Positions 8,356 through 54,261 of a stretch of DNA of 64,000 nucleotides are shown here, piece by piece (position 1 is the first letter of the stretch; every line of letters starts with the position of its first letter). Below the pieces are notes generated by a model that saw nothing but the letters and a program-made list of their open reading frames with translations, had not been told where the DNA came from and made no database searches. The position numbers and the translations under genes were made by a program. This stretch comes from an uncultured Planctomycetia bacterium (GTDB taxonomy: Bacteria; Omnitrophota; Gorgyraeia; Tantalellales; Tantalellaceae): positions 6,156 through 70,155 of the forward strand of contig CAZGQR010000003.1 in assembly GCA_964527765.1 (NCBI GenBank), written 5' to 3'.

Positions 8356-8386
8356 CTGCTCAGTGCCTCCCTTATCGTGCCCTCGC

Positions 8387-8803: not shown

Positions 8804-8853
8804 TTCCCGAAGGATAGTAACGTCAAACTGTGATCCATGTAGCAAGGGGTGTT

Positions 8854-9798: not shown

Positions 9799-9816
9799 TT
9801 TGCGCCGCTTCTACCG

Positions 9817-11743: not shown

Positions 11744-11752
11744 TGTGCTTCC

Positions 11753-13089: not shown

Positions 13090-13183
13090 TACCGTTCCTT
13101 CTGGATCTTAGAAAATTAACGGATAGCATTTAGTTCTCACTGTATACGCTATCCGCCAATTTTCATCGCGTGTTATCCCGGTA

Positions 13184-13693: not shown

Positions 13694-13757
13694 TTCCCTT
13701 CTCCTCTCTTATTTTTTCTTGCCGCACACTATAACCCTGTACACCGTATATTGCGCG

Positions 13758-17428: not shown

Positions 17429-17440
17429 CGGAAGGTACTG

Positions 17441-17884
17441 TTATTTTTTCACGACCCAGACCCTGAGCTGAGTCTTGACCTCAGGGTGCAGGCGAACATC
17501 AACGCTATAAACGCCCAGTGCTTTTATCGGTTCCTCAAGAACGATTTTTTTCCTGTCGATCTCGATGCCGTCCGCGCGCAAACCCTCGGCGATCATCTCT
17601 GAGGTAACAGAGCCGAAGAGCTTGTCCCCTTCTCCCGCATCCACTGAAATAGTGCAGGATGCTGCCGTTATCTTTTCAGCGAGTCTCTCGCATTCTTCCT
17701 TTAGCTGGCTTTCCCTGCGCTGCTTTTCCCGCTTTTTCTGCTCCAGCATGCGCAAGGCTCCTTTCGTGACCTCTGCGGCGAGCTTCTTCGGGATCAGGTA
17801 ATTCCTGGCGTACCCGTCCTTCACCGTCACCTCATCCCCGATGCCGCCCAGCTTCTCCACGTCCTTTATTAAGATCACCTTCAC
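17441..17884 (-). CDS. rplI: 50S ribosomal protein L9
   Basis: MKVILIKDVEKLGGIGDEVTVKDGYARNYLIP. Confidence 0.9.
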   Translation of the reverse strand: MKVILIKDVEKLGGIGDEVTVKDGYARNYLIPKKLAAEVTKGALRMLEQKKREKQRRESQLKEECERLAEKITAASCTISVDAGEGDKLFGSVTSEMIAEGLRADGIEIDRKKIVLEEPIKALGVYSVDVRLHPEVKTQLRVWVVKK

Positions 17885-18162
17885 GTTTCTTCCCTCGATC
17901 TTCTTCGCGGCAGCCCTTCTTTTATCCTGACGAACGGCAACAAAGCGGCCAGCCGCGCTCTTTTGATCCCGTTAGCGACCATGCGCTGGTGTCTGGCACA
18001 ATTCCCCGTGATGCGGGGGCTGATGATTCTGCCCCTGTCGGACACGAATTTATTGAGAAGGTCGATATTCTTATAATCTATCGATTTCACTTTCTCCCTG
18101 CATAGCCGGCATGGTTTCTTTTTAAAGATCCTTCGGGGTTTTTTAACGATCTTTTTTTTCAC
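17881..18162 (-). CDS. rpsR: 30S ribosomal protein S18
   Basis: CRLCREK...IDYKNIDLLNKFVSDRGRI...ITGNCARHQR. Confidence 0.85.
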   Translation of the reverse strand: MKKKIVKKPRRIFKKKPCRLCREKVKSIDYKNIDLLNKFVSDRGRIISPRITGNCARHQRMVANGIKRARLAALLPFVRIKEGLPRRRSREET

Positions 18163-18189
18163 GTTTCTCTCTCCGATTGTCTTCTTACT

Positions 18190-18651
18190 TTAAAATGGGG
18201 GTTCATCCCCTCCTGTTTCTTGATCCACGTCTATTGATTCAACTCTGCTGTATCCCTCGCGGGACTCCGCGCTTTCCGCGGCTTCACCGGGAACTCCTCT
18301 CGCCTGCTGCCTGTCTCCGCGCGCGCCCACGAACTGGACGCTTGTAGCCACGACATCCAGAGCGCTTCTTTTCTGTCCATCCTGGCCTTCCCACGTGCGG
18401 GACTTCAAACGGCCCTCCACCAGAACGGGCCTGCCCTTTGTGAGATATTCGCCGCAGACCTCAGCCATCTTACCCCAGACGACCACCCGGATGAATGAGA
18501 CATCTTCCTTTTTGTCGCCGGTATTATCTTTATAGATACGGTTCACTGCAACCGTAAAATTGGCAACCGCTGTCCCGCTTGGGATATATCTGAGTTCCGG
18601 ATCCCTTGTCAGGTTCCCCATCAAAAACACTTTATTCAAACTGGCAGCCAT
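18190..18651 (-). CDS. ssb: single-stranded DNA-binding protein
   Basis: OB fold NKVFLMGNLTRDPELRY and an acidic C-terminal tail ...DEPPF. Confidence 0.9.
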   Translation of the reverse strand: MAASLNKVFLMGNLTRDPELRYIPSGTAVANFTVAVNRIYKDNTGDKKEDVSFIRVVVWGKMAEVCGEYLTKGRPVLVEGRLKSRTWEGQDGQKRSALDVVATSVQFVGARGDRQQARGVPGEAAESAESREGYSRVESIDVDQETGGDEPPF

Positions 18652-18718
18652 TATTCTGTCTCCTCTCGCTCTCCGGACCAGGGAACAGCAAGCGGGATCG
18701 CTTGCCGCTCACTAACGT

Positions 18719-19009
18719 CTACTTTGTTTTATCTATCAGCGTTCTCAGTATATCCGTGTTTATCCGGAATTGCCTCATCATCTTTGAAACGGCCTCCGGC
18801 AAAGCGGTAAAAGCCACTTCGTAATAAATGCCTTCGGATCTTTTTTTGACGGGGTAGACAAGAGACTTTTTCCCCACCATATTCTCCTTCACGACACTCC
18901 CGGAATTATCGCTGATGACGGAATTTATGCGTTTTTTTACCTCATCTATTCCGTCCTCTTTTTCGGGCGCGATGATGAACAATCCTAGATACGATCTTGT
19001 TTTTTCCAT
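18719..19009 (-). CDS. rpsF: 30S ribosomal protein S6
   Basis: 96 aa; follows the conserved rpsF-ssb-rpsR-rplI order. Confidence 0.85.
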   Translation of the reverse strand: MEKTRSYLGLFIIAPEKEDGIDEVKKRINSVISDNSGSVVKENMVGKKSLVYPVKKRSEGIYYEVAFTALPEAVSKMMRQFRINTDILRTLIDKTK

Positions 19010-19077
19010 ATTTTAGCACCAAAATTATTTGTTAGATAATAACATATAATACCAGCATAAATCAAGACAATTAACGA

Positions 19078-19635
19078 TCACCTGTTGTATCGGTCCATGG
19101 CTTTTTTCGTGCCTTCCACAAGCCACGTTTCAATGCATTCTACCGCTCTTTCCCGCATTTCATTCAAGACGGGTTTCTCTGCGCGGGGAAAAGGCGATAA
19201 AACATACGGGGCCAGATCCTTGACCGCCTTGCCCGTCCCCACACCCAGCCTTAACCTCGCAAAGTCCGGGCCTATCTCTTCTATTATGGATTGCAGGCCG
19301 TTATGCCCCCCGGAAGACCCCTTATTCCTCAACCTTATGCGCCCGAGCGATAGATTAAAATCATCGCTGACGACCAGAAGATCCTTTTTATCGCTTAATT
19401 TTGAAGAACAGACTGCCTTTACGGCCTCTCCGGAAAGGTTCATGTACGTTAAAGGCCTAAAGAGCATGATCTCCTGCCGGTGTGCGCGGCCGACACCATA
19501 TATGCCGGCAAAACCTTTTCTTCTAATGCTTATCCGGTGCTTTTTTGCAAGATCCTTAAGCACCAGAAACCCCACATTGTGCCTTGTCCCTCTGTACCTG
19601 AGCCCCGGGTTTCCCAGGCCTATGATTATTTTCAT
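19078..19635 (-). CDS. pth: peptidyl-tRNA hydrolase
   Basis: MKIIIGLGNPG...TRHNVGF...NLSG. Confidence 0.9.
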   Translation of the reverse strand: MKIIIGLGNPGLRYRGTRHNVGFLVLKDLAKKHRISIRRKGFAGIYGVGRAHRQEIMLFRPLTYMNLSGEAVKAVCSSKLSDKKDLLVVSDDFNLSLGRIRLRNKGSSGGHNGLQSIIEEIGPDFARLRLGVGTGKAVKDLAPYVLSPFPRAEKPVLNEMRERAVECIETWLVEGTKKAMDRYNR

Positions 19636-19693
19636 TGTTTTATATCGTGTATCGCGTATTGATCTGTTTCTGCCGCGATAAAATAAGAGGGCA

Positions 19694-20401
19694 TCATTCC
19701 TTTTCCTCGGGGGGAGTTTCTTCTTTGCCTTCAGCCGGAGCCTCCGCCTCTTCTTCCTCTTTCTTGCCCTTCTTTATGACCTCGGGCTCCTCTTCTCCCT
19801 CAGCCGGAGCTTCTTCCGCCACTTCTTCCTCCAGCTTGGGCGGGATCACCGACACCACCATCTGTTCGGGGTCGTTAAGAATAGACACCCCCTGCAGCGG
19901 CGCTATATCCTTGACATGAATAGAGTCGCCGATGCGCAGCTCTCCGACCTGAACATCCACGTGTTCCGGTATGTCCGCAGGCATGCACTCGACCTCCAGT
20001 TCCCATGTCTCCTGGGTCAGCACGCCGTCATCCTCTTTTACCCCCACGGCCTCGCCCTTTACGACAACGGGTACTTTGACCTTTAATTTTTGCTTCAGAG
20101 ATATCTCATGGAAGTCCACGTGCACGAAGCTGTCGTTAATAGGATCGTGCTGCACTTCTTTAACAATGACCGTCTTCTCGGTCTTTTTCTTGCCATCGGA
20201 AATATCCATGGTTATGATGGCATTCTCACCTGCTTCGGTATGCAGCGCATGCCACAGTTCCTTGCTGCCGACCTGAACGCTTACGGCTTTTTTCCCTTCC
20301 TTGTACACCACACCGGGGATCAGCCCCTCTTTCCTCAGATGCTTGCATCCGCTTTTACCGAAACTCTCCCTCAGTGCCGCTTCAAGAACTATTTTCTCCA
20401 T
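19694..20401 (-). CDS. ctc: 50S ribosomal protein L25 / general stress protein Ctc
   Basis: L25 beta-barrel N-terminal domain plus an acidic Glu/Ala/Pro-rich tail. Confidence 0.85.
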   Translation of the reverse strand: MEKIVLEAALRESFGKSGCKHLRKEGLIPGVVYKEGKKAVSVQVGSKELWHALHTEAGENAIITMDISDGKKKTEKTVIVKEVQHDPINDSFVHVDFHEISLKQKLKVKVPVVVKGEAVGVKEDDGVLTQETWELEVECMPADIPEHVDVQVGELRIGDSIHVKDIAPLQGVSILNDPEQMVVSVIPPKLEEEVAEEAPAEGEEEPEVIKKGKKEEEEAEAPAEGKEETPPEEKE

Positions 20402-42659: not shown

Positions 42660-42688
42660 TTGCCTCTACATGCCAGATTTGTTATAAT
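42660..42688 (+). promoter_or_regulatory. near-consensus sigma70 promoter TTGCCT-N17-TATAAT driving tRNA-fMet
   Basis: -35 at 42660-42665, -10 at 42683-42688, 29 nt upstream of the tRNA 5' end. Confidence 0.5.
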
Positions 42689-42717: not shown

Positions 42718-42792
42718 CGCGGGGTGGAGCAGAGGTAGCTCGTGAGGCTCATAACCTCAAGGTCGGCGGTTCGATTCCGCCCCCCGCAACCA
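42718..42792 (+). tRNA. initiator tRNA-Met (anticodon CAU), CCA encoded
   Basis: CGCGGGG...CCCCGCA acceptor with a C1:A72 mismatch and the CTCATAA anticodon loop. Near-identical in architecture to E. coli tRNA-fMet. Confidence 0.85.
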
Positions 42793-42805
42793 ACTTCACC
42801 AACCT

Positions 42806-43018
42806 CAGGGACGTTTCTCATTTTGTTCCTAGACCGTAAATTATTTTACTCCCAGACCTGTCCCTAAATTTGTTCTCAGACCTGTCCCTCTACTTATTCT
42901 CTAAATTATTGGGGACAGGTCTGAGATTGGCCTTGGGGACGGGTCTGAGATTGAATCTGGGGACAAATCTAGGTTTAGGATTTTGTGCGGTCTAGGTTTG
43001 ATTTGAAAAACGTCCCTG
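42806..43018. repeat. 213-bp element, bounded by inverted repeats, containing a complex repeat array
   Basis: 11-bp perfect IR CAGGGACGTTT/AAACGTCCCTG at the ends. Inside are two or three direct copies of yCAGACCTGTCCCT and three or four inverted copies GGGGACrGGTCTGAGATTG. The element fills exactly the gap between the tRNA-fMet 3' end and the giant-ORF stop. Confidence 0.6.
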
Positions 43019-43019
43019 A

Positions 43020-46000
43020 TTATGCTGCGGTGCGGATTTTTGTTTCCTGGGTTCTATATCTTTCACGCAGTTCTTCGAATTCGACAGGTATCGCTTTTGG
43101 AAGGATGAAAATGTAGATGTCGGGGAATCTTTCGTCTTTCTTTACTGTTATGCCAAAGTCCCCGCTGTCTATACCCGGATCAAAGGCAAGCTCAAAAGCC
43201 AGCGTCAGCATTTCCATGATATAACTGTAAGTATTTTCGGTCAAATTCCTATTGTCCACCCCCGCCAGGAAAATGTCCTTATCTTTTCTCAGGGCCTCGA
43301 ATTCCCCGGAGGTAACGGTATTTTCATGGGATAACACTATGACTTTCGCGTCTTCATTACCCTTCTTGGCTTTTTCGGTCTTTACGGCTGTCAGCAGGTC
43401 TTTATCTTCCCTGTCTATAAAAATTATGTTCTGCGACTTGCAGAAACCCCTTAAGGCCATTATCAGGCGGTTCAGGACCTGGTGCTGGAGAGATCCTTTC
43501 TTTTCATATCCTCTTATCCAATCCGTCCCGAGAGCAAAAATAACTTTCTCACCCGGTTTTTTCCTTTCAAATGCCCGGACAATAGCGGTATCAATAAAAT
43601 CCTGAGCGATCTTTGCATCCCTGTCAATAGCGTGCTCCTTTTCCCTGTCCTCGGCTTTGGCCCGCTCGGAACTGGGCGGCATAATGGATCGCCACTCCTT
43701 CAGTTGCCTGAACCCTTTAACATCATTTTTAAACCCTTTATAGCCGTACATTATGGTGAACAGCGCATCCGGCCGCGTATATCCTTCTTTGCGCGGCAGG
43801 ACCGCGGCAATCACCGCCTTATTCTTCACGACATGGAAGTTCTCGACCAAATCGCGCGCCTTTGCCTTTTCCTCTTTGAAAAACTCTTCCGGGAGAATAA
43901 ACCCTTCCTCTGCGATACGCCTGAGATATGTCTCGTACCCGCCCCCTCTCAGGGAAACCAGATAAAGAAATATGCCGTATTTCTCTATAATCTTCTCCGG
44001 GATGCCTTTTTTCTCCAGCTCTTCCCTGAACCCATCAAAACCGACAGCCGGACTGAACGTGCTTATATAAGGAACGTCATCAAAATGTGCTTTTGCTTTA
44101 TCTATAAACATCTGACCAAGGTTTATATTCCGGGTGGCATCGTCTTTTGAGGATCCTATCGCCCAGAAAAGAAGCGTATCAAAAGGACCTTTACCGGATT
44201 TTCCGCTGAACATGTTATCCCATAAAGGATATTCTTCGATTTTTGCAAGTTCGCCTCCCGTATTAAGCGGATAAGTAAGAAGAACGCCCCTGACCGGCTT
44301 TTCGATCCCCTTGATCTTCAATAGATAGACCATTTTTTGCCGTATAAGGTGCCGCATTTGCTCTTTTGTCAGTTGTAAAAATTTGCTCCTCACCCAGGAC
44401 TCGTTATGGACGGAAAGAGCCTCGTCCAGTTCGGCTGCACCGGCCTGCGTGATCTCCGTTACTTCCCAGTTTATTATGTTGCATAGTGATCTGCCTAATC
44501 GCCCTTCGTACAATTTCGATTCATCCGGCGAGGCAATTGTCCGGAAAAGATATTCGTCAACCAGTTCCGGCGGCCCGTGATTCTGCAACCAGGCGATCAC
44601 ATCGGTGGCAAGAAAGAGTTCCCCGGCTTCCGCATCGTTCCGGTACAGGATAAAATCATCGGGTGATTCCATTATGGACTTAAAGCCGTATATCTTATAT
44701 TCCTTCAGCTTCTCCAGCTGATCCTGCAATCGGCTTCTGTCTTCATGGGATAATTCTTCTCCTTTCAGGGCATCTTTAAACAAGCTGATTATTTTATCCT
44801 TATATTGCCCGGTAATATCGTTCTGTCTCGTTTCCGAAAGCTGAGACCTGAATTTCCCGCGGGCCCCTGCGGTTTCGTCGTCCGCGCGGAGGTTATCTTC
44901 CTCGGGCTGCGGAAGGGGAAGATTCGGCACGGTCACCGGACCTTCGAAGGGAACCATCCCGTTTGGCCCGTATTTGATCACAAAATCATTGGGCTCAATG
45001 CCGAATTCGCGCAGTTTCGAGACAAGCCCCAGTTCCTTCATCAGGTCAAACGTGGCTTTCTGATTTCTGGAAAACCGGAATATCAACGTCAGGGTATCTT
45101 CCAGCCTTTCCTTCATATAAGGATCTTCTTCCCATTGATAAGTTTCGGCGCATTCCTTTATCAGCTTTTTGGTCTGCGGCGTAAGTTCAAGATCAAATAG
45201 ATCGATAAATTGGACAGCCCGTAAAAATTGCGGCATGTGCAGGTTCTCCGGCGCTATTTTTTCTTTCTCGCCTGTCTTTTTGCCTACCAGGCGCGCCGCT
45301 TTCCTCTTGAAATCCGCTATCCCCCCGTGTATATCTATGAGTTCTATCTCATCCCCTACTATCTTGAATCCGATCCTGTTCATGGACAGATCCGCCATCG
45401 GATCCGGCTCTATGTTGCCTTCTTCGTCAAGCACGCCCAGAACATCTATCGGAAAACCCCGGAAATTAAGGAACGCTTTTTCGAAGAGCCTGTAGGGAAT
45501 ATCCTCCACTTCTATCCTGTTACCTGCCTTGCTCAGCGCAAATGCAAGGTCGGACATGGTATCCCACGTGTTTACGCCCGTCTTTTCCTGTATGGCCTCT
45601 TTTTCAATAACAATGTCAAAATCCGACGGCGTCTTGTTAAGCAATAAGCTCCTTACCGCGCCGCCATAGATGATAATGCGGCTCAGGTCATTTCTCCTGA
45701 GGAACTGTAAAAATGTCTTAACTATTCCTTCCGGAAGCTCGTCGATCCTGAACCTGCTGCCATGGCCTAGATCTTTTCTTTCCATCAAAGGCAGTTTCCT
45801 GGGCCTGGTAAGAAATTCTTCCCTCTGAAGTTCTATCTCTTCATCCAGCGTTGCCGCGAATTCCCAGGCCTTGTCGGGCTCGAAAATGAACCATTCAAGA
45901 AAGTCCGGCGAATGCGTTGTCTGCATCCCGATGATCTTGAAGAAGGCCCTTCTCGCCTGGGGACGGATGAACACCCTGCCTTCCCCGCCTTCCCTCAAGC

Positions 46001-49000
46001 TTATGTTGATCAGGCTTTCGACCATCCGTCTGCCGACGCCCCTTAACTTTCTTCCTTCCTTTTCCCTTTCCGTATTATGGCGGGCGACCTCCAGGATCTT
46101 GATGCAAACACCGGGGCCCAGACCATACCTTCCTTCCCTGTCCATCTCATAGACGCATAATGCCTCCAGTATCCCTTTCGCGGTATAGGCCTTCAGGACT
46201 TTGTATTTTTCGTCAACGTTCTTCCATTGATCGTCTTTTTTCATGAACTGCGTGAACCATCGGAACATCTTGGTGTATTCGCCCTGTATGAGCTGATGCA
46301 CCTCATCGGAATCCGCCGGCTCTATCCAGATCTTTATCCTGTCCCCGCTTTTGGCCCCCATGACGAAAGTGGATACTGCGCCTTCCTCTCTTTCCTGCGC
46401 TTTCTCCTTTTCTTCCGGCTGATGAGAAATGGGCGTTTCGAACTGTTGGGAAGGAAACATGGTAACGGATATTTTTGTCTCGTTCGGGTCCGATTCGAAG
46501 AGGTCGGCATGGTTCCCGGCCGGGTCATGATAATACCTTACGCCTTTGCCCCTGCTGGCGCCTTCCACCGTAATGTCATCGATCCGCCCGAGGCGCCTGA
46601 GGCCCGACAGAAAAACACCTCTCACCGATTCAAGGGTGCTCTCCGGGGACACATATTTTCTTCTTACCCGTGGTTTTTCAAACGCATCGGGCACCGGTAT
46701 GCCCCTGCCGCGGTCCACGGCCATGATACGCACGCCCACCGTGCCGTCCGCCCTTTTGACCTTTTCGATCCTGAAATAGAAATCAGCTTCGGGCTGCGCG
46801 AGTGAAACGAACTCCTGCATGTTCTTGACCAGCTCACCGAACAGAAATTCCGCCAGTTGCGCGCGGTTGCGGAAATCCTGCGGAACGACCGGCGCAACGC
46901 CCGGGTCAAAGCCGATGGGTTCCCTGGCATCCCCGGGGCTTAAGGCCTTGAACATCTCCATTGCCTTGCGGTTTTTGGCATCAACGGTCGGGCGGCGCAA
47001 AGGCGATTCCGCTTCTTCCTTGGTTACGACGACTGAATCCAGAACCGAAAGATCTTCGGGCGGCTGTGCGTGACGGGAAACTATATATTTTTTCTCGAAT
47101 TCGCCCTGGTCAAGTCCGGATCGACCGGAGAGACGCTCCTCTATTATATCCCTCAAAGCCTTTCCCAATAATCCCTTGTACGGGGTGAATTTAAGCTGCT
47201 CCTGAAGTTTTCTTTTATCGGGATAATTGTCGGGAAAAAGGTCCTGCTGGACTAAAATGGCGTTGTAATGGCCCAGGAAGGGGCAGAGAAGTTCGTGCAG
47301 CAGATATTCGTCGACAATGGCCGGAGAACCGCGGTTTTCCAGTTCGGTAATAACATCAGTGGCAAAGAACAGTTCTTCTCCTTCATCATTCCGCCCCAGG
47401 AAAAAATCGTCCGGTCCGTTTACAATAGACTCAAAGCCGTATATCCTGGTCTTCCCTTTCCGCAGTCCCTCCAGCAGGCCCTTCAGGGATATTCTCTCGT
47501 ACTGCGGTATCTCAAGCTGCGGCAGGTCGATCATGCCCGATAACCGTACTATCCTGTCCCTGTATTCGTCCGTAATATCGTTCTTTTTGATATCATCAAG
47601 CCGTGACAGGAATTCTTTCAGCGGATACACGCCCTGCCATATAAAACCGTCGGGCCCCGCATTGCCGGGCATTATTGCCGAAAATGCTTTCTTCAATCTC
47701 GTGTTTTTGGCAATTCTATCTATGATATTCTTGCAGACCCCAAGGACCGAAGATTCGCTCATGCCATACCTGTCCATCAACTCCCTGGTTGTGTCATCAT
47801 CAAAATACTTTTCCTTGAAGATCTGTATATCCCTTTCCTTGTGCCTGGTATCCGGAAGGACCTCCTTCAGAAGGTCCAGAAGCTCCTTTATTTCTTCATC
47901 GGTCAGCGCCGTGAGCCGACCTCTGCGGAAAATATGATCGGCATCTTCCTTAATGGGACCGGTCAGACTTACTTCTCTATTCCTTTTGAGGCGCCTGTAA
48001 TGATCCATTAAGGCATTTTGGAAAGCCGCCTGAAAATACGGCACGAATATCTCGTGCTTGTGATCTCCGAACGCCAGCACCGTCTTCATGAGAACATCGT
48101 TCAGAAGGTCGGACAGGCCGTGATCCCCGATATCATCCTTATGATTATTCATTACGCCCTGCACGGCATGTTTGCATACGGCATGAAGAGCGACGAAACT
48201 GGCCTTGTTGCCCGTTTCCGCATCCAGGGCCAAGGCGACTATATCGGCGTTGGTTAAGCTGCCAAAATGCCGTTTGACAAATTTTTCAAGGCCGTGGGGC
48301 AGATCTTCGTATCCCCTGTACCTGTGCAACAGCTCCTTCGTCTTTGACCAGCTGTCCTCTGTAAACCTGAGCTCCTTTCTTCTTAAGGGCAGGAGGTTCC
48401 TTATCCCCAGATGTTTCTTGATTATTCTGAGAGCCCTGTGAAAAGAACCTCTGCCGGAAAGCCCGTTCATTCTCACGTAAAACGTTAGAAGGCCGGACAG
48501 TGATTTGCCGCCGAACGCCTCAAGCTGTTTGGCAAGATCGACCGTATCCACTTCCCCGGATTTTTTACCCGCCTCCCGCGCAAGTATTTCCACAAGATGA
48601 CGGCGGGCCTCCTTCATTACCCTGGGCCACCTGATCTTCTTTTTCCTGAATTCTTCCAGCACGGTGTCGGGGCCTATAATTATGCCGCCTTTTTCAAGCT
48701 TTTCTCTGGCGGCTTTTGTCTCGGCGCTGGCGGGTTTTGCGCCAAGATCCTTAAGGATGGATGTTACGATCTCCAATTCAACAGGTTTCAAGACCATCGC
48801 CCGGTATACCGCGCCCCTGCCGCTCCCTTTTCTTTCCACAAGGCCGAGACGGTCCAGCACCCCCAGGTCGCGTTTTATTGTATGTTCCATCGACAGGCCG
48901 CTCTTTCCGGCGATATCCTGAGCCGAAATAAATCTGTTTTCCGCCCTGAGGATCTCGAACGTGTTGTAGGGCGAGCCTTCGGAGGTCGGCGGCACTGCGC

Positions 49001-52000
49001 CGGGCTCCGGGCGCTTTTTGCCGATCATGATGCCGTCCACTTCCTTTATAAGCTCGGTCAGAAGTCTATCGCCGGCGTTTTCCTTCTCGGATAGTTCCTT
49101 GTACTTTTTTAAGGCCCTTACCAGCTTATTGATTTTTCTCGTCGGTTTTCTTCTCTTTTTGTCGGGCAGTTTGCGGAACGTCGATTTTATGCTCTCCAGC
49201 AGAGTGACACACAGGGCATATACATCGTCCCTGGGCAGGCAAAGTTCTCTTGTCGGGGTATCTTCGGCTTTGACCCTGTTGATCCTGTCCCCGCTCATGT
49301 AATACCCTTTGGTGAACCATTTCCGGATCTTGTTTATCCTTCCCCCCTTGTCCAGCGGGGTCACGGTGTCATTATCGACATACACCACTCTTTTTAACGC
49401 TCCGTTATCTTCCACGGCCATGATCGCGGTGGGGTCGATATCGCCGTGAACATACCCGTTATTCAAGTAGGTCTGCCTGTATCCTTTCAGGGTCTTTTCC
49501 GCCAGGTCAAGAAAGGCCGATTCTACGGCACGAAGGGGCCTCAGGCGCAGCGCCCTGGCATGATCTTCCAGGGTCCTGCCGTCAATGAATTCAAAAAGAG
49601 GCACTTTCTTGCTTGAAAACCCGTCCATGCCGTCCGTGGGGACCAGGCCGATGAACTTGGGCAGGCAGGGGTTTGTATTCGCGGGGTTTATGAAGGAAAG
49701 GATCTCGACCTGAGGCAGCAGGAAGATCTCCAAATTGCCGTGCCGATGGCCATACAATGTCGAATCTTTCGTAATATAATAATTGCCCTTTTTGAGCTCT
49801 ATCGCGTTGGTGAGGATCTTATCTTCCCCGACATATTCGTATTTCCGCAACACGGAATTGCCCGTTTTAATAAGCCCGGTAAATTTAAAATCTCTTTCAA
49901 AATTCCTTATGCGGGGGACCCTGCTGACCGCTTTCCGGACCGCCTGAACATCCTTTTCGGGGGGTGCGGCGCTAAGCGTGATAATGGAAAATAAACGTCG
50001 GCGGAGCCTTTCCTTTGCTGCTCGTTTTTCCCCGGCGGAAGGCCGCGGGCCGAGCTTTTTAAGGACGGGTTCCGCGATCTCCCATCCTGCCGGGCTCAGT
50101 TCCATCGCCCTGAATATGGCGTAATCGCCTTCACCGTCCTTTTCGACCAGACCGAGAAAAACGAGTGTCCCCAGGTCGCGTTTTACCACTTCAAGCGAAA
50201 GATGCCCGTCTGGCATCCCTCCTTTCGTTTCCAGCCGGATCTGCTCGGCAAAGGCAAAGCCTTCTTTTGCCCGCAGGATCTCGAACATGCTGCATGGAGA
50301 GCCTTCGGCAGGCGGATCTTCACGCTGCAAACCATCTCCCCTGCCCGATCTCGCCTTCTCCTTGGAAATTATATAGGCCCTTGAATTGCTGACCAGGCCG
50401 AATGAGTCTGCGGAAACCGCCAGTCCCGTTTTTTCGCTCAGCAGTTCCTCCACATACTTCAAGTAGCTGTTGACCAGAACCGCTTTGCCGCCATCGGTCA
50501 TATGTTCAGCTATATTTGCGGCGACCCGCTTCAGGACCGCTTCGCCAAAGTCCTTTACGTTCCTGTCATCGGGCGTTATCAGCCCGGTACCCAGGTCCAC
50601 ACTGCTCCCGTGCGGCATGGTTATATGCGGCATGTTGAATATGATAAGGTCATACTGACCCAGCCCGTCGAACAGGTCATTGCGAAAGGCGTTTACCCTG
50701 CTCCCGGCGCCTCCCAAAGAACAGGTGAGCTTCGTGTTCTCCACCGCCATCTCTTTTATGTCCACCGCGTCTACAAAAGCCCCTTTCTCGGCGGCTATGC
50801 GGGCCTCAAGCCCGCTGCCCGTCCCGATGACCAGCACCTTCATCCCGGGTTTGGCGTATTTTAAGGCGGCTTTCGCGCTTACTTCGCTTGAGGGGTTGAC
50901 GCCGGTATAAACACCCGGCAGAACAGGAATGCTTAAAACCGTCATACCCGGCGGGTATGCTTTGCCGTCGGTGGGCGGGGCGGACTTTATCTCGATCAAT
51001 TCTCCGGAATTATCGAACATGGCATACGCGTAAGCGGACTTAAGAACCCGGGGCCAGAAATCGGGGAACAATTTCTTCTTTCTTTTTTTCGCGGATTCCG
51101 CTTTCCTCTTGTCGCTGTCCCCGTAATAAACGGACAGGTCTATGACCACGGGGTCCTTGCCTGTTCTTTGCAGGCTTAAAAACAGAGGTTTATCGTTATG
51201 GTTCACTATCGACAGGGCCCCTTCCAGCTCATCCTTCTCCAAGACCCTGAATGCCGTCCTGATCGCGTAACTGTTGAGTTTTTCCAGCGGCACCTCGGCA
51301 ATGTCGAACCCTTTTTCCCTTCGCCACTCCAGTTTCGCGGGAACAATACCCAATGCCCTGAAGATCCTGCTCGCGACTTCAGAAAATTCCGCGGGCGGCT
51401 GGATCAGGTGAAATTCCAGCGTTATCATCGTGCCGGCAGTGATATCGCTCGTGCCGCTCTGGGCGAACCAGAGCCCGGCATTCTCGTCCGTGCTGATCCC
51501 GGTCCACTTCTCGCCATACGCTTTTCTGCCTTTCGACTCGATCACGACATGATCCGGATCGAACGCTATCCTTTTGAAGCCGAAGCCCCTGAGCGCGCCT
51601 TCCGCGGCTTTGATGCTGTCCCTGACCAGTTCGTTCGGATCACGCGTCAGGCCTTCTCCGTTATCCACGGCAACGATCTTCAGGCCGGTGATCGCGCCGG
51701 ACTTGTCCCTTCCGGCGTACACCCGGATGACACCTCCCCTGCCGTGTTCCATGATATTGCGCGCCAGCTCGTTGAGAACGTCGTCTATGCTGACTCTTTT
51801 ACCTTCCGGAACTTCTTCGATGCTCTTGATGAATTTTCTTATTTCGCCGGACACAAAATCCTCATGGGCTTCGGTAATAATGCCCGGCATCTCAAGCTCA
51901 AACACGGGTCCGGCCGGGTCGGGGGCCTTGCGTTTTATCCCCGCCCATTTCCTTGCCACGACCTTGGTGCCCCCGTGCTCCATTTCCGCGTCCCTGGCCT

Positions 52001-54134
52001 TTTTCGTCTTGAACCATTGCCGCCCCCGGGACAAGATCTCCACATAGTCCATATCCCTGACCAGCCTGGTCAGGGCCATTCCCGCGCTTCCCCCTGTTTT
52101 ATCCAGGGAAACCCCCTCTTTCACCGCCAGGGCGATATCCCTTATCCCTTTTCCGTTATCCAGGGCGACTACCTCTACACCTCTGCCTTTTTTCTCGCTG
52201 TATATCCCGCGTGCCAGGAGCACCCCGAATCCGGTTACCACATGCTGTTCCACGTTTTCCGCCAGGCCCACAAGAGACCTGATCACCTTGGAAGCTTTTA
52301 TGTCGCTCAGGCCTAAATTTTTTACCAGACCGGGGATATTTGTCTTTTCCACAATCGCTACCGCTTCTGACGGCTTCATGCTCAACAGTTTCTCGATCTT
52401 TCTCCTGCCCCGCCTGCCGACAAAAAGAGCCCACCTGAACCCGTAAAAACTTTCAAGAACGCACAAACTTTCCTTGAGAGCTTCTTCGTTCATATCACAC
52501 AACGCCTGCCAGGCCCTGCCTATCAGGTCCTCAGTCGGTATGATTTCTTCCGGCGCGGTCGCGGCATCCCTCGCGGCGAAGGGCTTCTGCCTTATCCTCA
52601 GGTCCCAGCCATAACCGCTGCTGTTCCCCGCCAGGAACGCCGGCACCATCAGCGTAAGCAGGATCCGGTGCTTGATATCCTCGATCTCGGGGTCCTTGAT
52701 CTCCTTAAGAGAGATCGGAAAGTCAGGGCCTTTGTCAAAATAGGCCATGTCCTCCGGGACACACACGTAATCGTCCGTAATAAGGTACCCGCCCGGTCTC
52801 ATTTGTTCGTAGATGCGGCATATGAAACTGCCCCATCCTTTTTCATAGTCCTTGGCGGTTTCATTGGCGGCTCTCTGATAATAAATATCGATCCTTTCCC
52901 CTTCGAGCATTTCTTCATATTGGCGGGGCCTGGTGATATCGGCATTTATGAACGTTATCGAATAGGTCTGTTCCTTTGCGCCCCTGTACTGCCAGTCAAA
53001 CGTTATGCGGGGATGGCCTTGATCCGAATCGACCTTCACCGTCGAAAGATCCACCCCTATCGCTTTCAGCTCAAAAGCGATCGCCGCGGTGATCTTTCTC
53101 CTGTTCTGAAGCGTCCCGCCGTTGGCGAAACCCCACTTGAATTTTTCGCAGTAAAGATCGGCGTTGAAATATTTTCTCAGGTATTCTTCGGGACCATCGT
53201 CCTTAAAGCACTTCTTGAGTTCCGATTCCGAAAGCTGATAGAAAATGCCGCTATAATCCGAGATGAAATATCCCCTGGTCGCGTTGGTCGAAAGAAGAAA
53301 GTTCGAGATGTCGGCGCCGGCGGCGCCGTAAACCGCCGTCAGGGGCCTGTTGTCCGGGTTCACGAATCTCTTTATCGCCATGCCGTGCTCGACATGCATT
53401 CTCTGGAGAAGGCCCGCATTGATCGGGCGATAGTCGATCTGTTTCTTCCCATCAAGGGGTGAAGTTTTTTCCGTCTCCGGAAGCGAGGCTTCTTCCGCCC
53501 GCGGGAACGGGGTTTTCCCCCGGTCTTTTTGTCCGGCTGAGATACCTTTTTCCGGCACGATCCGGGAAGATATGGCGCCCCACCCTTCACACATGATCTT
53601 TGCATCCCCGATCTCGATGGGTATTGCGGCTCCGCCGCGAGATTCAAGCGGTTCATCTCCCGGCAAGTAATAGCGGAGGGTCACCGTTTCGGGGCTTCCT
53701 TCTCTCTTGTAGGGCAGGCAAAAAGTGTTTCCTTCTTTATGCAATTCCTGCCATTTAAAGCTTTCGAAATCTATATGCGAGATGTGCTTCTTAAGAAGTT
53801 TTTCCCTGAGGCCATCCGCGCTTATCATGCTTCCGGACTGGGCCAGCACCTGCCCTATTAAAATGCTGAGATAAATGAACCCGGCATCCTCCTGGAAATC
53901 TTCTTTGGCTCTCGATCCCGCCGCTTCATTTTCATTAACAATGACCTGGCCGCTCTCGCGCACTTTCACGCTGATGATGGGGCTGAGTCTCGAAGGAGGA
54001 GAAAGGGTGTGGACGCTTTCCCGCGCCGCGCCGGGCTCGAGCGCGTAGGAAATGTTGCTGAAAACGAACAGGCATATTATGCCCGCCGATACGGCCTTGA
54101 ACCACAACTTGTGCGTATTGAAATATCTTTCCAT
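43020..54134 (-). CDS. giant multidomain protein (3704 aa), function unknown
   Basis: A single uninterrupted 11.1-kb ORF. The N-terminus is a signal peptide or signal anchor. Motif-level evidence supports GHKL kinase, SAM methyltransferase, wHTH, kinase-like, ECF sigma, class II nucleotidyltransferase and duplicated modules; see findings. Confidence 0.85.
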   Translation of the reverse strand: MERYFNTHKLWFKAVSAGIICLFVFSNISYALEPGAARESVHTLSPPSRLSPIISVKVRESGQVIVNENEAAGSRAKEDFQEDAGFIYLSILIGQVLAQSGSMISADGLREKLLKKHISHIDFESFKWQELHKEGNTFCLPYKREGSPETVTLRYYLPGDEPLESRGGAAIPIEIGDAKIMCEGWGAISSRIVPEKGISAGQKDRGKTPFPRAEEASLPETEKTSPLDGKKQIDYRPINAGLLQRMHVEHGMAIKRFVNPDNRPLTAVYGAAGADISNFLLSTNATRGYFISDYSGIFYQLSESELKKCFKDDGPEEYLRKYFNADLYCEKFKWGFANGGTLQNRRKITAAIAFELKAIGVDLSTVKVDSDQGHPRITFDWQYRGAKEQTYSITFINADITRPRQYEEMLEGERIDIYYQRAANETAKDYEKGWGSFICRIYEQMRPGGYLITDDYVCVPEDMAYFDKGPDFPISLKEIKDPEIEDIKHRILLTLMVPAFLAGNSSGYGWDLRIRQKPFAARDAATAPEEIIPTEDLIGRAWQALCDMNEEALKESLCVLESFYGFRWALFVGRRGRRKIEKLLSMKPSEAVAIVEKTNIPGLVKNLGLSDIKASKVIRSLVGLAENVEQHVVTGFGVLLARGIYSEKKGRGVEVVALDNGKGIRDIALAVKEGVSLDKTGGSAGMALTRLVRDMDYVEILSRGRQWFKTKKARDAEMEHGGTKVVARKWAGIKRKAPDPAGPVFELEMPGIITEAHEDFVSGEIRKFIKSIEEVPEGKRVSIDDVLNELARNIMEHGRGGVIRVYAGRDKSGAITGLKIVAVDNGEGLTRDPNELVRDSIKAAEGALRGFGFKRIAFDPDHVVIESKGRKAYGEKWTGISTDENAGLWFAQSGTSDITAGTMITLEFHLIQPPAEFSEVASRIFRALGIVPAKLEWRREKGFDIAEVPLEKLNSYAIRTAFRVLEKDELEGALSIVNHNDKPLFLSLQRTGKDPVVIDLSVYYGDSDKRKAESAKKRKKKLFPDFWPRVLKSAYAYAMFDNSGELIEIKSAPPTDGKAYPPGMTVLSIPVLPGVYTGVNPSSEVSAKAALKYAKPGMKVLVIGTGSGLEARIAAEKGAFVDAVDIKEMAVENTKLTCSLGGAGSRVNAFRNDLFDGLGQYDLIIFNMPHITMPHGSSVDLGTGLITPDDRNVKDFGEAVLKRVAANIAEHMTDGGKAVLVNSYLKYVEELLSEKTGLAVSADSFGLVSNSRAYIISKEKARSGRGDGLQREDPPAEGSPCSMFEILRAKEGFAFAEQIRLETKGGMPDGHLSLEVVKRDLGTLVFLGLVEKDGEGDYAIFRAMELSPAGWEIAEPVLKKLGPRPSAGEKRAAKERLRRRLFSIITLSAAPPEKDVQAVRKAVSRVPRIRNFERDFKFTGLIKTGNSVLRKYEYVGEDKILTNAIELKKGNYYITKDSTLYGHRHGNLEIFLLPQVEILSFINPANTNPCLPKFIGLVPTDGMDGFSSKKVPLFEFIDGRTLEDHARALRLRPLRAVESAFLDLAEKTLKGYRQTYLNNGYVHGDIDPTAIMAVEDNGALKRVVYVDNDTVTPLDKGGRINKIRKWFTKGYYMSGDRINRVKAEDTPTRELCLPRDDVYALCVTLLESIKSTFRKLPDKKRRKPTRKINKLVRALKKYKELSEKENAGDRLLTELIKEVDGIMIGKKRPEPGAVPPTSEGSPYNTFEILRAENRFISAQDIAGKSGLSMEHTIKRDLGVLDRLGLVERKGSGRGAVYRAMVLKPVELEIVTSILKDLGAKPASAETKAAREKLEKGGIIIGPDTVLEEFRKKKIRWPRVMKEARRHLVEILAREAGKKSGEVDTVDLAKQLEAFGGKSLSGLLTFYVRMNGLSGRGSFHRALRIIKKHLGIRNLLPLRRKELRFTEDSWSKTKELLHRYRGYEDLPHGLEKFVKRHFGSLTNADIVALALDAETGNKASFVALHAVCKHAVQGVMNNHKDDIGDHGLSDLLNDVLMKTVLAFGDHKHEIFVPYFQAAFQNALMDHYRRLKRNREVSLTGPIKEDADHIFRRGRLTALTDEEIKELLDLLKEVLPDTRHKERDIQIFKEKYFDDDTTRELMDRYGMSESSVLGVCKNIIDRIAKNTRLKKAFSAIMPGNAGPDGFIWQGVYPLKEFLSRLDDIKKNDITDEYRDRIVRLSGMIDLPQLEIPQYERISLKGLLEGLRKGKTRIYGFESIVNGPDDFFLGRNDEGEELFFATDVITELENRGSPAIVDEYLLHELLCPFLGHYNAILVQQDLFPDNYPDKRKLQEQLKFTPYKGLLGKALRDIIEERLSGRSGLDQGEFEKKYIVSRHAQPPEDLSVLDSVVVTKEEAESPLRRPTVDAKNRKAMEMFKALSPGDAREPIGFDPGVAPVVPQDFRNRAQLAEFLFGELVKNMQEFVSLAQPEADFYFRIEKVKRADGTVGVRIMAVDRGRGIPVPDAFEKPRVRRKYVSPESTLESVRGVFLSGLRRLGRIDDITVEGASRGKGVRYYHDPAGNHADLFESDPNETKISVTMFPSQQFETPISHQPEEKEKAQEREEGAVSTFVMGAKSGDRIKIWIEPADSDEVHQLIQGEYTKMFRWFTQFMKKDDQWKNVDEKYKVLKAYTAKGILEALCVYEMDREGRYGLGPGVCIKILEVARHNTEREKEGRKLRGVGRRMVESLINISLREGGEGRVFIRPQARRAFFKIIGMQTTHSPDFLEWFIFEPDKAWEFAATLDEEIELQREEFLTRPRKLPLMERKDLGHGSRFRIDELPEGIVKTFLQFLRRNDLSRIIIYGGAVRSLLLNKTPSDFDIVIEKEAIQEKTGVNTWDTMSDLAFALSKAGNRIEVEDIPYRLFEKAFLNFRGFPIDVLGVLDEEGNIEPDPMADLSMNRIGFKIVGDEIELIDIHGGIADFKRKAARLVGKKTGEKEKIAPENLHMPQFLRAVQFIDLFDLELTPQTKKLIKECAETYQWEEDPYMKERLEDTLTLIFRFSRNQKATFDLMKELGLVSKLREFGIEPNDFVIKYGPNGMVPFEGPVTVPNLPLPQPEEDNLRADDETAGARGKFRSQLSETRQNDITGQYKDKIISLFKDALKGEELSHEDRSRLQDQLEKLKEYKIYGFKSIMESPDDFILYRNDAEAGELFLATDVIAWLQNHGPPELVDEYLFRTIASPDESKLYEGRLGRSLCNIINWEVTEITQAGAAELDEALSVHNESWVRSKFLQLTKEQMRHLIRQKMVYLLKIKGIEKPVRGVLLTYPLNTGGELAKIEEYPLWDNMFSGKSGKGPFDTLLFWAIGSSKDDATRNINLGQMFIDKAKAHFDDVPYISTFSPAVGFDGFREELEKKGIPEKIIEKYGIFLYLVSLRGGGYETYLRRIAEEGFILPEEFFKEEKAKARDLVENFHVVKNKAVIAAVLPRKEGYTRPDALFTIMYGYKGFKNDVKGFRQLKEWRSIMPPSSERAKAEDREKEHAIDRDAKIAQDFIDTAIVRAFERKKPGEKVIFALGTDWIRGYEKKGSLQHQVLNRLIMALRGFCKSQNIIFIDREDKDLLTAVKTEKAKKGNEDAKVIVLSHENTVTSGEFEALRKDKDIFLAGVDNRNLTENTYSYIMEMLTLAFELAFDPGIDSGDFGITVKKDERFPDIYIFILPKAIPVEFEELRERYRTQETKIRTAA

Positions 54135-54231: not shown

Positions 54232-54261
54232 ATTATAACACACAAAAGTTAGTTAAGTCAA
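54232..54261 (-). promoter_or_regulatory. candidate promoter TTGACT-N18-TATAAT for the giant ORF
   Basis: Read on the minus strand about 95 nt upstream of the ATG at 54134. A GGGAG RBS lies 3 nt before the ATG. Confidence 0.4.

Follow-up and report, generated by a model that had tools for sequence, protein, structure and literature searches.

The 64,000-nt stretch of contig CAZGQR010000003.1 analysed here (the window, to whose positions all coordinates refer) carries on its minus strand, at 43020..54134, an open reading frame (ORF) of 11,115 nt, which starts with ATG and encodes a mosaic protein of 3,704 amino acids (aa). This giant gene is a chassis gene at a size-variable syntenic locus, with ~2,975 aa of shuffled cargo cassettes lying between a domain that we term M1 and a C-terminal domain (C-domain). 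Its source is an uncultivated Omnitrophota bacterium related to Candidatus (Ca.) Makaraimicrobium thalassicum, with flanking proteins 67–82% identical to those of Ca. Makaraimicrobium thalassicum B134_G9 and every named homologue of the giant belonging to Candidatus Omnitrophota, in line with an initial annotation of the stretch that had pointed to giant genes of this kind in candidate phyla. Ca. Makaraimicrobium thalassicum is discussed among the Gorgyraia families by Seymour et al. (PMC10066038). Throughout, P-numbers label the family proteins compared and L-numbers the loci compared.

The giant gene and its syntenic slot

The giant is one intact protein-coding gene under purifying selection. 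An ORF of this length has a chance probability of ~10^-77 under the simple 3/64 stop-codon rule, and the same 11,115-nt ORF, of equal length and with zero indels, is present in four independent metagenome assemblies (ENA ERZ27256778 and ERZ27256773, JGI 3300029258 and 3300017991). Relative to the window, one of the two variant assemblies has 15 synonymous and 9 non-synonymous codon changes and the other has 10 and 5, with the non-synonymous changes few and scattered, and a ratio of non-synonymous to synonymous polymorphism (pN/pS) of 0.15–0.17 among strain variants; the proposal of a single real giant gene is upheld. Within the 17.1-kb loci compared around the gene (L003 and L004), 24 of 26 and 15 of 17 single-nucleotide polymorphisms lie inside the giant gene, which at 11.1 kb makes up 65% of the compared length, and the 6 kb of flanks are nearly invariant. 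The near-consensus promoter of its own that had been assigned to the gene is a sigma-70-type site, TTGACT-18-(TG)TATAAT, at 54232..54261 on the minus strand, matching 11 of 12 positions with an extended -10 element and ranking as the top site of a 12-kb scan, and a ribosome-binding site (GGGAGAG) lies 5 nt upstream of the ATG.

Relatives were compared in a local BLAST set of ~155 family proteins. The slot occupied by the gene (X) has the order rnfB-purN-eno-(divIC-HPP)-pfkB, X, tRNA-Met-purB-purM, and in Ca. Makaraimicrobium thalassicum the locus L008 reads RnfCDGEAB-purN-eno-pfkB(-), X, tRNA-Met(CAT)-purB, with flanking genes 67–82% identical. There gene X (L008:9407-11614) encodes a protein of 735 aa (P0031). 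Residues 1-527 of the giant align to aa 1-499 of P0031 and residues 3503-3697 to aa 520-729, with P0031 made up of an N-terminal domain (N-domain), M1 and the C-domain only, and with a linker of 20 aa where the giant has ~2,975 aa. As the two genes share both the syntenic slot and the end-pieces, the giant is a positional orthologue of the 735-aa gene, and the cargo region that the latter lacks spans aa 528-3502 (43629..52553, minus strand).

The same backbone surrounds genes of very different length in other relatives, with P0035 reaching 6,375 aa, P0003 4,930 aa and P0007 3,085 aa. In P0034 (680 aa), as in P0031 (735 aa), the N-domain and M1 are joined directly to the C-domain, and P0032 (1,035 aa) has between M1 and the C-domain a short insert with one unit of R95, a ~95-aa helical repeat. 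In L013 the slot is occupied by a tandem of two family genes, an ORF at 31-4002 (at least 1,323 aa, ending in the C-domain) being followed 14 nt later by P0007 at 4016-13273. The slot of L010 holds two overlapping ORFs, 9317-14743 and 14700-19841 (1,808 and 1,713 aa), which may represent a true split or a single gene of ~3,500 aa broken by a frameshift.

The longest of these relatives, P0035, covers 3,129 of the 3,704 residues of the giant at 29–55% identity (~40% in most blocks), in a rearranged and duplicated order. The shared blocks, named after the modules described below, are G2-X920-MT2-WH, WH-K (twice), D-G3, A-NT-D and D-U, and cassettes recur in other family members in differing order and copy number. 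The chassis of the giant is 45% (N-domain and M1) and 27% (C-domain) identical to P0031, compared with 67–82% for the flanking proteins, and thus evolves much faster than its neighbours. A search with P0031 as query returned 6 proteins, and a narrower alignment of the N-domain returned 5 metagenome loci; further members with the N-domain at one end and the C-domain at the other, of 1,306 and 3,153 aa, are found elsewhere. The 3,153-aa ORF (L031 10001-19460, Ga0180432) has the leader, the N-domain and the C-domain with no detectable M1, and lies in L031 without pfkB or purB synteny; a variant of the giant gene is found under Ga0180434, the accession next to Ga0180432. Since the L031 protein lacks M1, the leader, the N-domain and the C-domain are taken as the constant parts of the chassis, with M1 as its most frequent core module, common and not obligatory.

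Chassis and cargo modules

The first 53 residues (53976..54134, minus strand), delimited by hydrophobicity, charge and conservation, comprise a Sec-type leader and, in the disordered linker behind it, the conserved motif HTLSPPSRL. The n-region has a net charge of +2, the h-region comprises 15 aa (aa 14-28), S-Y-A occupies -3/-1, and the flank after the h-region has a net charge of -1, with aa 14-32 the only strong hydrophobic segment of the giant (Kyte-Doolittle hydropathy >1.6). Leader and N-domain are conserved in 14 family members, with a leader consensus of N-(D/N)-x-S-(F/Y)-A that fits the -3/-1 rule, and almost all 14 leaders keep Ala at -1 and one of the small residues S, V or A at -3. 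The family motif HTLxPxSRF lies ~10 residues past the leader in a segment predicted to be disordered, with a low predicted local distance difference test score (pLDDT) for residues 30-53 in the model of a homologue. Judged by such rules, the N-terminal signal-like leader of the initial annotation is well founded in its basic n-region, 15-aa h-region and S-x-A site, and looks like a cleavable Sec signal whose N-terminus, by charge, would lie inside.

The N-domain (aa 54-224; 53463..53975, minus strand) is family-specific, with conservation and a homologue model indicating two helices and a beta-sheet. It is common to P0002, P0003, P0005, P0006, P0007, P0009, P0031, P0032, P0034, P0035, P0038, P0039 and P0089, shows a pLDDT of ~75–94 in the model of the homologue P0034, and has no match in Pfam or the Protein Data Bank (PDB).

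M1 (aa 225-520; 52575..53462, minus strand), the signature module of the family, is a divergent domain with the fold of the class-I S-adenosylmethionine (SAM) methyltransferases, identified from a structural model and Foldseek. It has no sequence match in Pfam or PDB. A model built from a 22-sequence alignment has a pLDDT of 90.5 and a predicted TM-score (pTM) of 0.91, with the top Foldseek ranks occupied by class-I methyltransferases only (NNMT, TPMT, Dot1L and OvoM; E ~1e-4), and on this model M1 has the seven-strand, Rossmann-like class-I methyltransferase fold. With regard to the SAM-binding motif I (GxGxG) and the acidic residue at the end of strand 2 that mark class-I methyltransferases, the alignment conserves Y-G-x-(A/S)-G-x-D, has D, S, Q or A at the position behind strand 2, and shows D192, Y194, Y195 and Q196 to be invariant or nearly so. 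When the 19 database homologues, all of 2.2–6.5 thousand amino acids (kAA), are mapped onto the giant, aa 228-517 is its most widely shared stretch, and the segments aa 1-190 and aa 3503-3704 are seen again at the very N- and C-terminal ends of other proteins. The initial annotation had left aa 40-620 blank, and so missed the family-defining N-domain and M1, the most widely shared part of the protein. A profile of M1 finds 574 proteins at E<=1e-3 among 1.84 billion representative proteins (clustered at 50% identity), with the M1-bearing proteins mostly 1–7.8 kAA long and carrying up to three or four copies. Apparently stand-alone M1 proteins of ~300–360 aa include P0050, P0052, P0066, P0085, P0088, P0101 and P0105, amongst others.

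The C-domain (aa 3501-3704 plus stop codon; 43020..43634, minus strand) is a family-specific alpha/beta domain of ~200 aa, recognised by alignment and model, which always stands at the extreme C-terminus and ends in ...Y-x-x-Q-x-x-x-I-x-x-A-A. It terminates 13 further proteins, and of the 11 proteins besides the giant that bear the N-domain, 10 close with it as well. What had been described as a final 500 aa of unknown nature therefore consists of two parts, the cargo module U (3205-3500) and this conserved domain (3501-3704). The C-domain model shows a beta-alpha-beta layered fold (pLDDT mostly 73–97), with only generic Rossmann-like or flavodoxin-like neighbours in PDB (E >= 0.015) in fold searches that used the whole-chassis model, such that M1 matches dominated the lists for the N- and C-domains. 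Most C-termini of the family are ...A-A or ...x-A (IRTAA, IVAA, IKSAA, IAAAA, LIRA), with that of the giant encoded at window 43023-43040, and a non-polar Ala-Ala end of this kind resembles ssrA-type and tail-specific-protease recognition tails.

The minimal form of the chassis is seen in P0034 (680 aa), a complete ORF inside its own contig. Its AF2 model (pLDDT 84) begins with a transmembrane (TM) or signal helix and a disordered linker, continues with an alpha+beta N-domain and M1, and closes, after a further linker, with a layered alpha/beta C-domain. The family is lineage-specific and unannotated, built on a fixed chassis of leader, HTLxPxSRF motif, N-domain, usually M1, and C-domain, with relatives found in Omnitrophota-type metagenome-assembled genomes only, all annotated as hypothetical.

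At least 12 distinct module types tile the giant, each in no more than three copies. Since direct library matches are few, homologous modules in relatives were used for identification. Single-sequence searches of PDB sequences with aa 531-930, 1381-1710, 2331-2810 and 1960-2160 returned nothing meaningful, and searches of PADLOC and PHROGs gave no defence-system or phage context, with mad2 and nucleotidyltransferase/HTH hints only. The motif positions of the initial annotation are correct throughout (HGDIDPTAI at 1563, VLVIGTGSGLE at 1100, IIFNMPH at 1164, LGVLDRLGLVERKGSGRGAVYR at 1757, the DxGxG boxes at 657, 822 and 2472, GGAVRS at ~2824 and DFD at ~2838), and the Pfam and hidden Markov model check of the translation finds its motif-level calls not all spurious, with most holding at the superfamily level.

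Three GHKL-like modules, G1 (aa 556-745; 51900..52469, minus strand), G2 (aa 746-920; 51375..51899, minus strand) and G3 (aa 2341-2577; 46404..47114, minus strand), were assigned as in the initial annotation, and their placement in the superfamily stands, with the N-box Asn and DxGxG (DRGRG in G3) aligning across all three and five homologues. G1 matches NCBIfam spoIIAB weakly (E 0.012, aa 644-703) and is homologous to G2 (E 9e-5), with the segments aa 652-711 and 817-876 34% identical (E 1e-5). G2 is homologous to P0035 aa 500-645 (E 2e-30), and its counterpart in P0035 (aa 480-660) scores 31.1 bits on Pfam HATPase_c and so exceeds the cut-off of 26.4; GHKL segments of other relatives match HATPase_c or HATPase_c_2 at E 1e-5 to 2e-3 (HATPase_c_2 E 4e-5). 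The giant itself has no Pfam HATPase_c or HATPase_c_2 match, with all three modules below cut-off there, and neither a STAS domain nor a PP2C phosphatase among its Pfam matches, nor a STAS domain in its immediate neighbours. G3 is assigned at the motif level, as it has no Pfam match even in the homologous P0035 segment; the D-G3 block is 54.7% identical to P0035.

G2 is followed by X920 and the HemK2/MTQ2-like methyltransferase module MT2 (aa 1076-1270), together spanning aa 921-1270 (50325..51374, minus strand), a block 41% identical to P0008. The methyltransferase call holds for aa 1089-1237 through matches to NCBIfam TIGR00537 (E 3.7e-14, 52.8 bits against a cut-off of 87), PRK14968 (E 5.8e-15, 55.2 bits against a cut-off of 162) and PADLOC mad2 (E 4.6e-15), the family models being matched below their cut-offs, whilst the description of motif IV as degenerate does not. 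The catalytic motif IV of HemK2/MTQ2 is (N/D)PPY. MT2 lacks this motif and has N-M-P-H in its place, alongside motif I VLVIGTGSGLE, and the strict conservation of FNMPH across four homologous modules marks it as a variant rather than a sign of decay.

The call of two winged-helix-turn-helix (wHTH) modules is likewise supported. WH1 (aa 1271-1400; 49935..50324, minus strand) is a duplicate of aa 1718-1839, with aa 1276-1409 and 1718-1839 40% identical (E 2e-22), and is 49–56% identical to modules in P0005, P0007 and P0009. The second copy, WH2, shares aa 1713-1925 (48360..48998, minus strand) with R95, of which at least 17 copies are present in P0002 and one each in P0003 and P0032. A nine-sequence winged-helix profile places ArsR/CzrA, the Hop2 winged helix, Fur and PadR among its top PDB matches, all winged-helix regulators and all weak (best E 0.014). 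Between the two lies the protein-kinase-like module K (aa 1401-1712; 48999..49934, minus strand), with HGDIDPTAI at 1563 and VDND at 1586. The kinase-like reading of the former motif is borne out by P0035, which has two homologous copies of the module, one matching ABC1 (E 9.6e-5), Pkinase (0.002) and RIO1 (0.007); HGD...VDND is conserved, with the catalytic-loop Asn replaced by Ala or Gly in all copies.

The sigma-70-like module (aa 1926-2160; 47655..48359, minus strand) had been described as ECF sigma-like. This is supported by a TIGR02937 match at aa 2007-2143 (E 2.7e-6) that spans model positions 28-163 of 165 and so regions 2-4, with weak PHROG and Pfam Mor HTH matches at aa 2097-2143, but the TIGR02937 score of 27.1 bits is below the cut-off of 42.9, and neither Pfam Sigma70_r2 or r4 nor any PDB sequence matches the module.

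Module D1 (aa 2161-2340; 47115..47654, minus strand) carries the motif DEYLLHExLCPxxGHY and has homologues in P0035 (three copies), P0084, P0014, P0003 and P0008, with no PDB match to its alignment. From its sequence the motif could be a metal-binding or peptidase-like site (His-Glu-x-x-Cys...Gly-His). D2 (aa 3053-3204; 44523..44978, minus strand) is a shorter copy with DEYLFRTIASP instead of the HExxC..GH motif, and the duplicated ~105-aa module noticed initially is recovered as aa 2177-2285 and 3097-3203, 46% identical (E 2e-23). In both the giant and P0035 the D modules stand at cassette boundaries, a position that raises the idea of a processing or adaptor role.

In module A (aa 2578-2800; 45735..46403, minus strand), which is possibly GNAT-like, RGVGRRM lies at 2698, with a sole match to Pfam Acetyltransf_1 (E 0.15) in the homologous P0035 segment and an empty PDB profile search. 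The class II nucleotidyltransferase (NT) head that follows (aa 2801-3052; 44979..45734, minus strand) had been predicted and is confirmed by PolyA_pol (PF01743) at aa 2822-2946, with 24.8 bits against a gathering cut-off of 23, and by the presence of GGAVRS at ~2824 and DFD at ~2838. It also matches a PHROG tRNA nucleotidyltransferase (E 3e-6) and, weakly, the NCBIfam pcnB and CCA models, with equivalog scores far below cut-offs and no PolyA_pol_RNAbd or tRNA_NucTran2 match to indicate a neck, body or RNA-binding part. Module U (aa 3205-3500; 43635..44522, minus strand) completes the cargo, with the D-U block 47% identical to P0035, a Pfam MCD match (E 0.0013) in the homologous P0035 segment as its only hint, and an empty PDB profile search.

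The surrounding chromosome

The whole window is core chromosome. The genes around the giant are purB, purM, purD, purE, SHMT, pfkB, HPP, enolase, purN and RnfB, and BamA, LpxB, FtsH, RNase Y, DnaB, GlmU-like, XseA and SurA-like genes lie elsewhere in the window, with BamA and LpxB showing that the bacterium is diderm. Beyond the annotated neighbours, ten other large ORFs of the window, not every small one, were scanned, and no secretion system, pilus or injection apparatus was found in either set; no integrase, transposase or phage gene was found among the annotated neighbours. G+C at third codon positions (GC3) is near that of neighbouring genes for the giant gene, and within the host range for most modules. 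In the last third of the gene (window 43020-46000), which covers the nucleotidyltransferase, D2, U and C-domain modules, G+C is 0.47–0.48 and GC3 0.50–0.56, with a GC3 of 0.58–0.72 in the remainder of the gene and in the neighbouring genes. As the C-domain belongs to the conserved chassis, recent foreign origin is no obvious explanation of this lower G+C.

A tRNA-Met(CAT) gene of initiator type (42718..42792, plus strand) lies 227 nt past the stop codon of the giant and is convergent with it, with a near-consensus promoter TTGCCT-17-(TG)TATAAT at 42660-42688 on the plus strand, found by a promoter scan. Its identification as tRNA-fMet agrees with the initiator hallmarks of a C1xA72 mismatch and an A11:U24 pair, although next to the anticodon loop the usual three G-C pairs are reduced to two, with 29:41 being A-U. 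A tRNA-Met(CAT) stands between gene X and purB in Ca. Makaraimicrobium as well (L008 11785-11859). The tRNA was considered as an integration landmark and rejected as such, being conserved locus backbone shared with relatives.

The whole gap between stop codon and tRNA is filled by a long imperfect palindrome (42796..43022), with 84-nt arms that are 71% complementary and contain 3+3 tandem 24-nt units (TTGGGGACAGGTCTGAGATTGGCC and variants). As RNA it would fold at -99.6 kcal/mol (z = -10.8); its 15-mer core is present in four copies in the palindrome and nowhere else in the window, and an Rfam scan gave only sub-threshold matches to miRNA precursors, generic hairpin matches. The orthologous gap in L008 holds ordinary terminator hairpins in its place. 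The palindrome probably acts as an insulator or as a terminator for both directions of transcription, or else is an insertion resembling a miniature inverted-repeat transposable element. The ENA annotators called a 51-aa ORF inside it.

Possible function and comparison with known systems

The reading that we favour, and hold to be somewhat more probable than its negation, is that the giant is a chassis gene whose locus evolves by cassette turnover and whose product is an exported multi-effector carrier in partner or host interaction. The locus would change size by cassette duplication, gain and loss, with recombination between the repeated wHTH and D 'adaptor' modules at cassette ends probably helping. 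The leader would send the polypeptide across the cytoplasmic membrane, and the N-in charge, the short h-region and the conserved S-x-A site suggest that it should leave the cytoplasm. As the recognisable cargo needs ATP, SAM, nucleoside triphosphates (NTPs), nucleic acid or RNA polymerase, its likeliest site of action would then be the cytoplasm of another cell or a cell-cell interface. There the sigma-like, anti-sigma-like, wHTH, methyltransferase and nucleotidyltransferase modules may interfere with the transcription and translation of the partner, with the protein acting as a multi-effector carrier in a host- or partner-dependent Omnitrophota lifestyle. The fast evolution of the chassis is what one would expect of a protein that acts in interactions. 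For Omnitrophota, host dependence or predation has been put forward as a way of life, with a giant protein reported to be up-regulated on attachment (PMC10066038; 10.1101/2023.11.21.568195), and 94% of the long proteins of the phylum are described as having a signal peptide or TM segment (10.64898/2026.06.07.730766).

Several points weigh against the export of effectors. Cleavage and orientation of the leader follow from simple rules, no route across the outer membrane is evident given that the ORFs scanned contain no secretion or injection genes, and all cargo domains are of cytoplasmic type, so that an intracellular role fits them equally well. The sigma-like, MT2 and wHTH calls lie below curated cut-offs and G3 and module A are recognised by motif only, with the N-domain, C-domain, D, R95, X920 and U modules having no assigned fold or function. 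Gorgyraia of the Makaraimicrobium type have been described as acetogens (PMC10066038). As to cassette turnover, expansion of a short gene and collapse of a long one are both compatible with the present sample.

Possible, albeit rather unlikely in our estimate, is a membrane-tethered cytoplasmic hub, in which the leader is not cleaved but anchors the N-terminus, leaving most of the chain in the cytoplasm. Regulators and modifying enzymes would here have been fused into one polypeptide in a genome of reduced size, with the sigma-like and GHKL anti-sigma-like modules forming an in-cis partner switch, and with the wHTH, methyltransferase, GNAT-like and tRNA/RNA nucleotidyltransferase modules acting on the cell's own transcription and translation. 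The requirement of all recognisable cargo for ATP, SAM, NTPs, DNA or RNA polymerase sits well with such a hub, as do the presence of anti-sigma-like and sigma-like modules in one chain, the housekeeping neighbours, the strong sigma-70 promoter and the lack of secretion genes nearby, and for ~46% of the Omnitrophota long proteins in the published catalogue a TM anchor with a cytoplasmic bulk is predicted (10.64898/2026.06.07.730766). However, charges of +2 before and -1 after the hydrophobic segment predict the N-terminus inside and the bulk outside, and an h-region of ~15 aa with a conserved small-x-Ala site is typical of cleaved signals. Furthermore, cargo that ranges from 0 to ~5,700 aa between orthologous loci, on a chassis that evolves fast, would be unusual for core regulation, and the short orthologue has no regulatory module at all, yet the surrounding genes are kept in its genome.

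A bolder form of the export reading, which we consider doubtful, is that the slot between pfkB and tRNA-Met is a chromosomal 'effector accordion', comprising an export and docking chassis and exchangeable cassettes that episymbiotic or predatory Omnitrophota would deliver into partner cells, taking over their transcription and translation by means of the sigma-like, anti-sigma-like GHKL, wHTH, kinase-like, methyltransferase and tRNA/RNA nucleotidyltransferase modules. If true, this would be a cellular, chromosomal counterpart of phage polyvalent proteins and MARTX toxins, the orthologous lengths of 735, 3,085, 3,704, 4,930 and 6,375 aa would give a momentary picture of alleles that differ greatly in size, and the giant genes of the phylum might arise from such alleles.

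That the cargo is largely non-functional, with a surface or secreted protein that the cell can spare having gathered duplicated and captured domain fragments, drifting neutrally, in a linker that tolerates them, and with the chassis as the sole functional part, appears very unlikely. The cargo is indeed wholly absent from the 735-aa and 680-aa forms, D2 has lost HExxC..GH, the kinase-like module lacks its catalytic Asn, and the homologous nucleotidyltransferase module of P0035 is without the first Asp of DxD; against this, pN/pS is 0.15–0.17 across the gene, the cargo modules are 40–55% identical to those of P0035 over ~3,100 aa, FNMPH, HGD..VDND, and the GHKL N-box and DxGxG in all copies are strictly conserved, and 11 kb are free of internal stops.

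Derivation from a mobile element or phage, as a 'polyvalent protein', or from a genomic island that inserted beside the tRNA gene, is less probable still, and we regard such an origin as highly improbable. The adjacent tRNA with a repeat-rich palindrome between it and the gene, the somewhat lower G+C of the 3' third and a many-domain architecture like that of polyvalent proteins (PMC5512222) could be read in this way. In contrast, relatives with short or long alleles in the slot have the tRNA and both flanks as a common conserved backbone, integrase, transposase and phage genes are missing from the annotated neighbours, GC3 is within the host range for most modules, and M1 was not found in the 2.9 million IMG/VR viral contigs scanned, with the empty IMG/VR scan and the conserved synteny together disfavouring a phage, island or tRNA-integration origin.

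Lastly, an assembly or frameshift artefact joining several genes, for which the chimeras that can arise in short-read metagenome assemblies and the two overlapping ORFs (1,808 and 1,713 aa) in the slot of the relative L010 might be cited, is rejected as next to impossible, since four independent assemblies agree on the same 11,115-nt ORF without indels, long blocks are collinear with P0035, itself one ORF, and the conserved N- and C-terminal end-pieces lie exactly at both ORF ends.

Giant mosaic genes of Omnitrophota have been catalogued, with the published surveys starting at 10 kAA or above and calling the proteins sequence-unique. The present locus shows one way in which the mosaic giant proteins of the phylum differ in size, namely by module blocks between fixed end-pieces. 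It offers a tractable entry point, with recognisable fixed end-pieces, a minimal form of 680–735 aa that is small enough to express and solve, and an orthologous size series at one syntenic position from which cassette gain, loss and duplication can be reconstructed. M1 is a sizeable uncharacterised domain family that lacks a Pfam model and could be used as a marker for such proteins, with the stand-alone M1 proteins, if they are complete genes, being the easiest targets for biochemistry. Should the export-and-effector reading be true, the cargo would point to manipulation of partner gene expression, unlike the role in cell-wall degradation proposed so far. The locus is a handle on how the giant genes of Omnitrophota come to differ in size and on the role of their constant parts, and not a categorically new system.

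Amongst the published giants, those of West-Roberts et al. 2023, the Archaeovorin type, exceed 30 kAA (genes >90 kb), with many TM helices and SecA-DEAD, a content of glycosyltransferases (GT), glycoside hydrolases (GH), peptidases, NUDIX and methyltransferases, and adjacent type II secretion system (T2SS), pilus or carbohydrate-import genes (10.1101/2023.11.21.568195). Nielsen & Lui 2026 treat proteins >=10 kAA, with a Module 1 of methyltransferase, HATPase, GNAT, HAD and HD and a landscape described as sequence-unique (10.64898/2026.06.07.730766), and Seymour et al. 2023 report giant ORFs >20 kb with obscure functions in several classes (PMC10066038). The initial annotation had recognised no characterised protein family in the architecture, which is true of the present family, whereas mosaic Omnitrophota long proteins rich in methyltransferase, HATPase and GNAT domains are published (10.1101/2023.11.21.568195; 10.64898/2026.06.07.730766).

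With these giants the present protein shares the phylum, a mosaic of unrelated enzyme and regulator domains, an N-terminal signal peptide, a methyltransferase, HATPase-like and possibly GNAT-like content, poor conservation and mostly absent annotation, and internal repeats of domains whose nucleotide sequences have drifted apart; the family member P0003 even has the SecA_DEAD domains (PF07517, PF01043) typical of them. It shows the many-domain tiling without a dominant family and the signal-peptide traits of Nielsen & Lui class 1 at a length below 10,000 aa, and of their Module 1 the methyltransferase is clear, HATPase_c is reached via relatives and motifs, and GNAT via a match at E 0.15 and a motif. 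In contrast to the Archaeovorin type, at 3.7 kAA and 11.1 kb it lies below the survey thresholds of 10 and 30 kAA, and has one hydrophobic segment rather than tens of TM helices, no SecA, GT, GH, peptidase, NUDIX, HEAT or dockerin domain by Pfam and NCBIfam, and no T2SS, pilus, carbohydrate-import or transposase neighbours among the ORFs scanned. Its cargo, unlike that of the published giants, is dominated by modules of transcription and translation type (sigma-like, wHTH, GHKL, nucleotidyltransferase). Fixed end-pieces, an M1-type domain family, such cargo and a short positional orthologue were not found in the available text of those Omnitrophota giant-protein papers. The general class is already published; judged by that text, the present family and its size-variable locus are not.

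The GHKL N-box Asn and DxGxG, the weak spoIIAB and HATPase_c_2 matches and a sigma-70-like module in the same protein recall the RsbW/SpoIIAB partner switch, with the difference that the modules are here fused in one exported-looking chain of 3,704 aa and score below family cut-offs in the giant. MARTX toxins have conserved N- and C-terminal regions that flank a variable effector array, with strain differences arising via recombination. The giant likewise has conserved ends and a variable central array, an analogy that is architectural only, as no RTX or glycine-rich repeats, cysteine protease domain or type I secretion system genes were detected for it, and its end-pieces are globular (methyltransferase fold, alpha/beta) and not repeat regions. 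Polyvalent proteins combine 2–15 or more unrelated domains per polypeptide, including methyltransferases, in shuffled order, with the simultaneous delivery of several activities to another cell proposed (PMC5512222, Iyer et al. 2017). Like them, the giant has many enzymatic and DNA-binding domains whose order is shuffled between relatives, but its locus belongs to the core chromosome instead of a mobile element, its leader is of the Sec type, its end domains are specific to the lineage, and it shows none of the hallmark domains (such as ArdC, or SNF2 helicase + methyltransferase) by Pfam. Its architecture is thus like that of polyvalent proteins or MARTX toxins, and it is a member of neither, with a lineage-specific chassis of its own.

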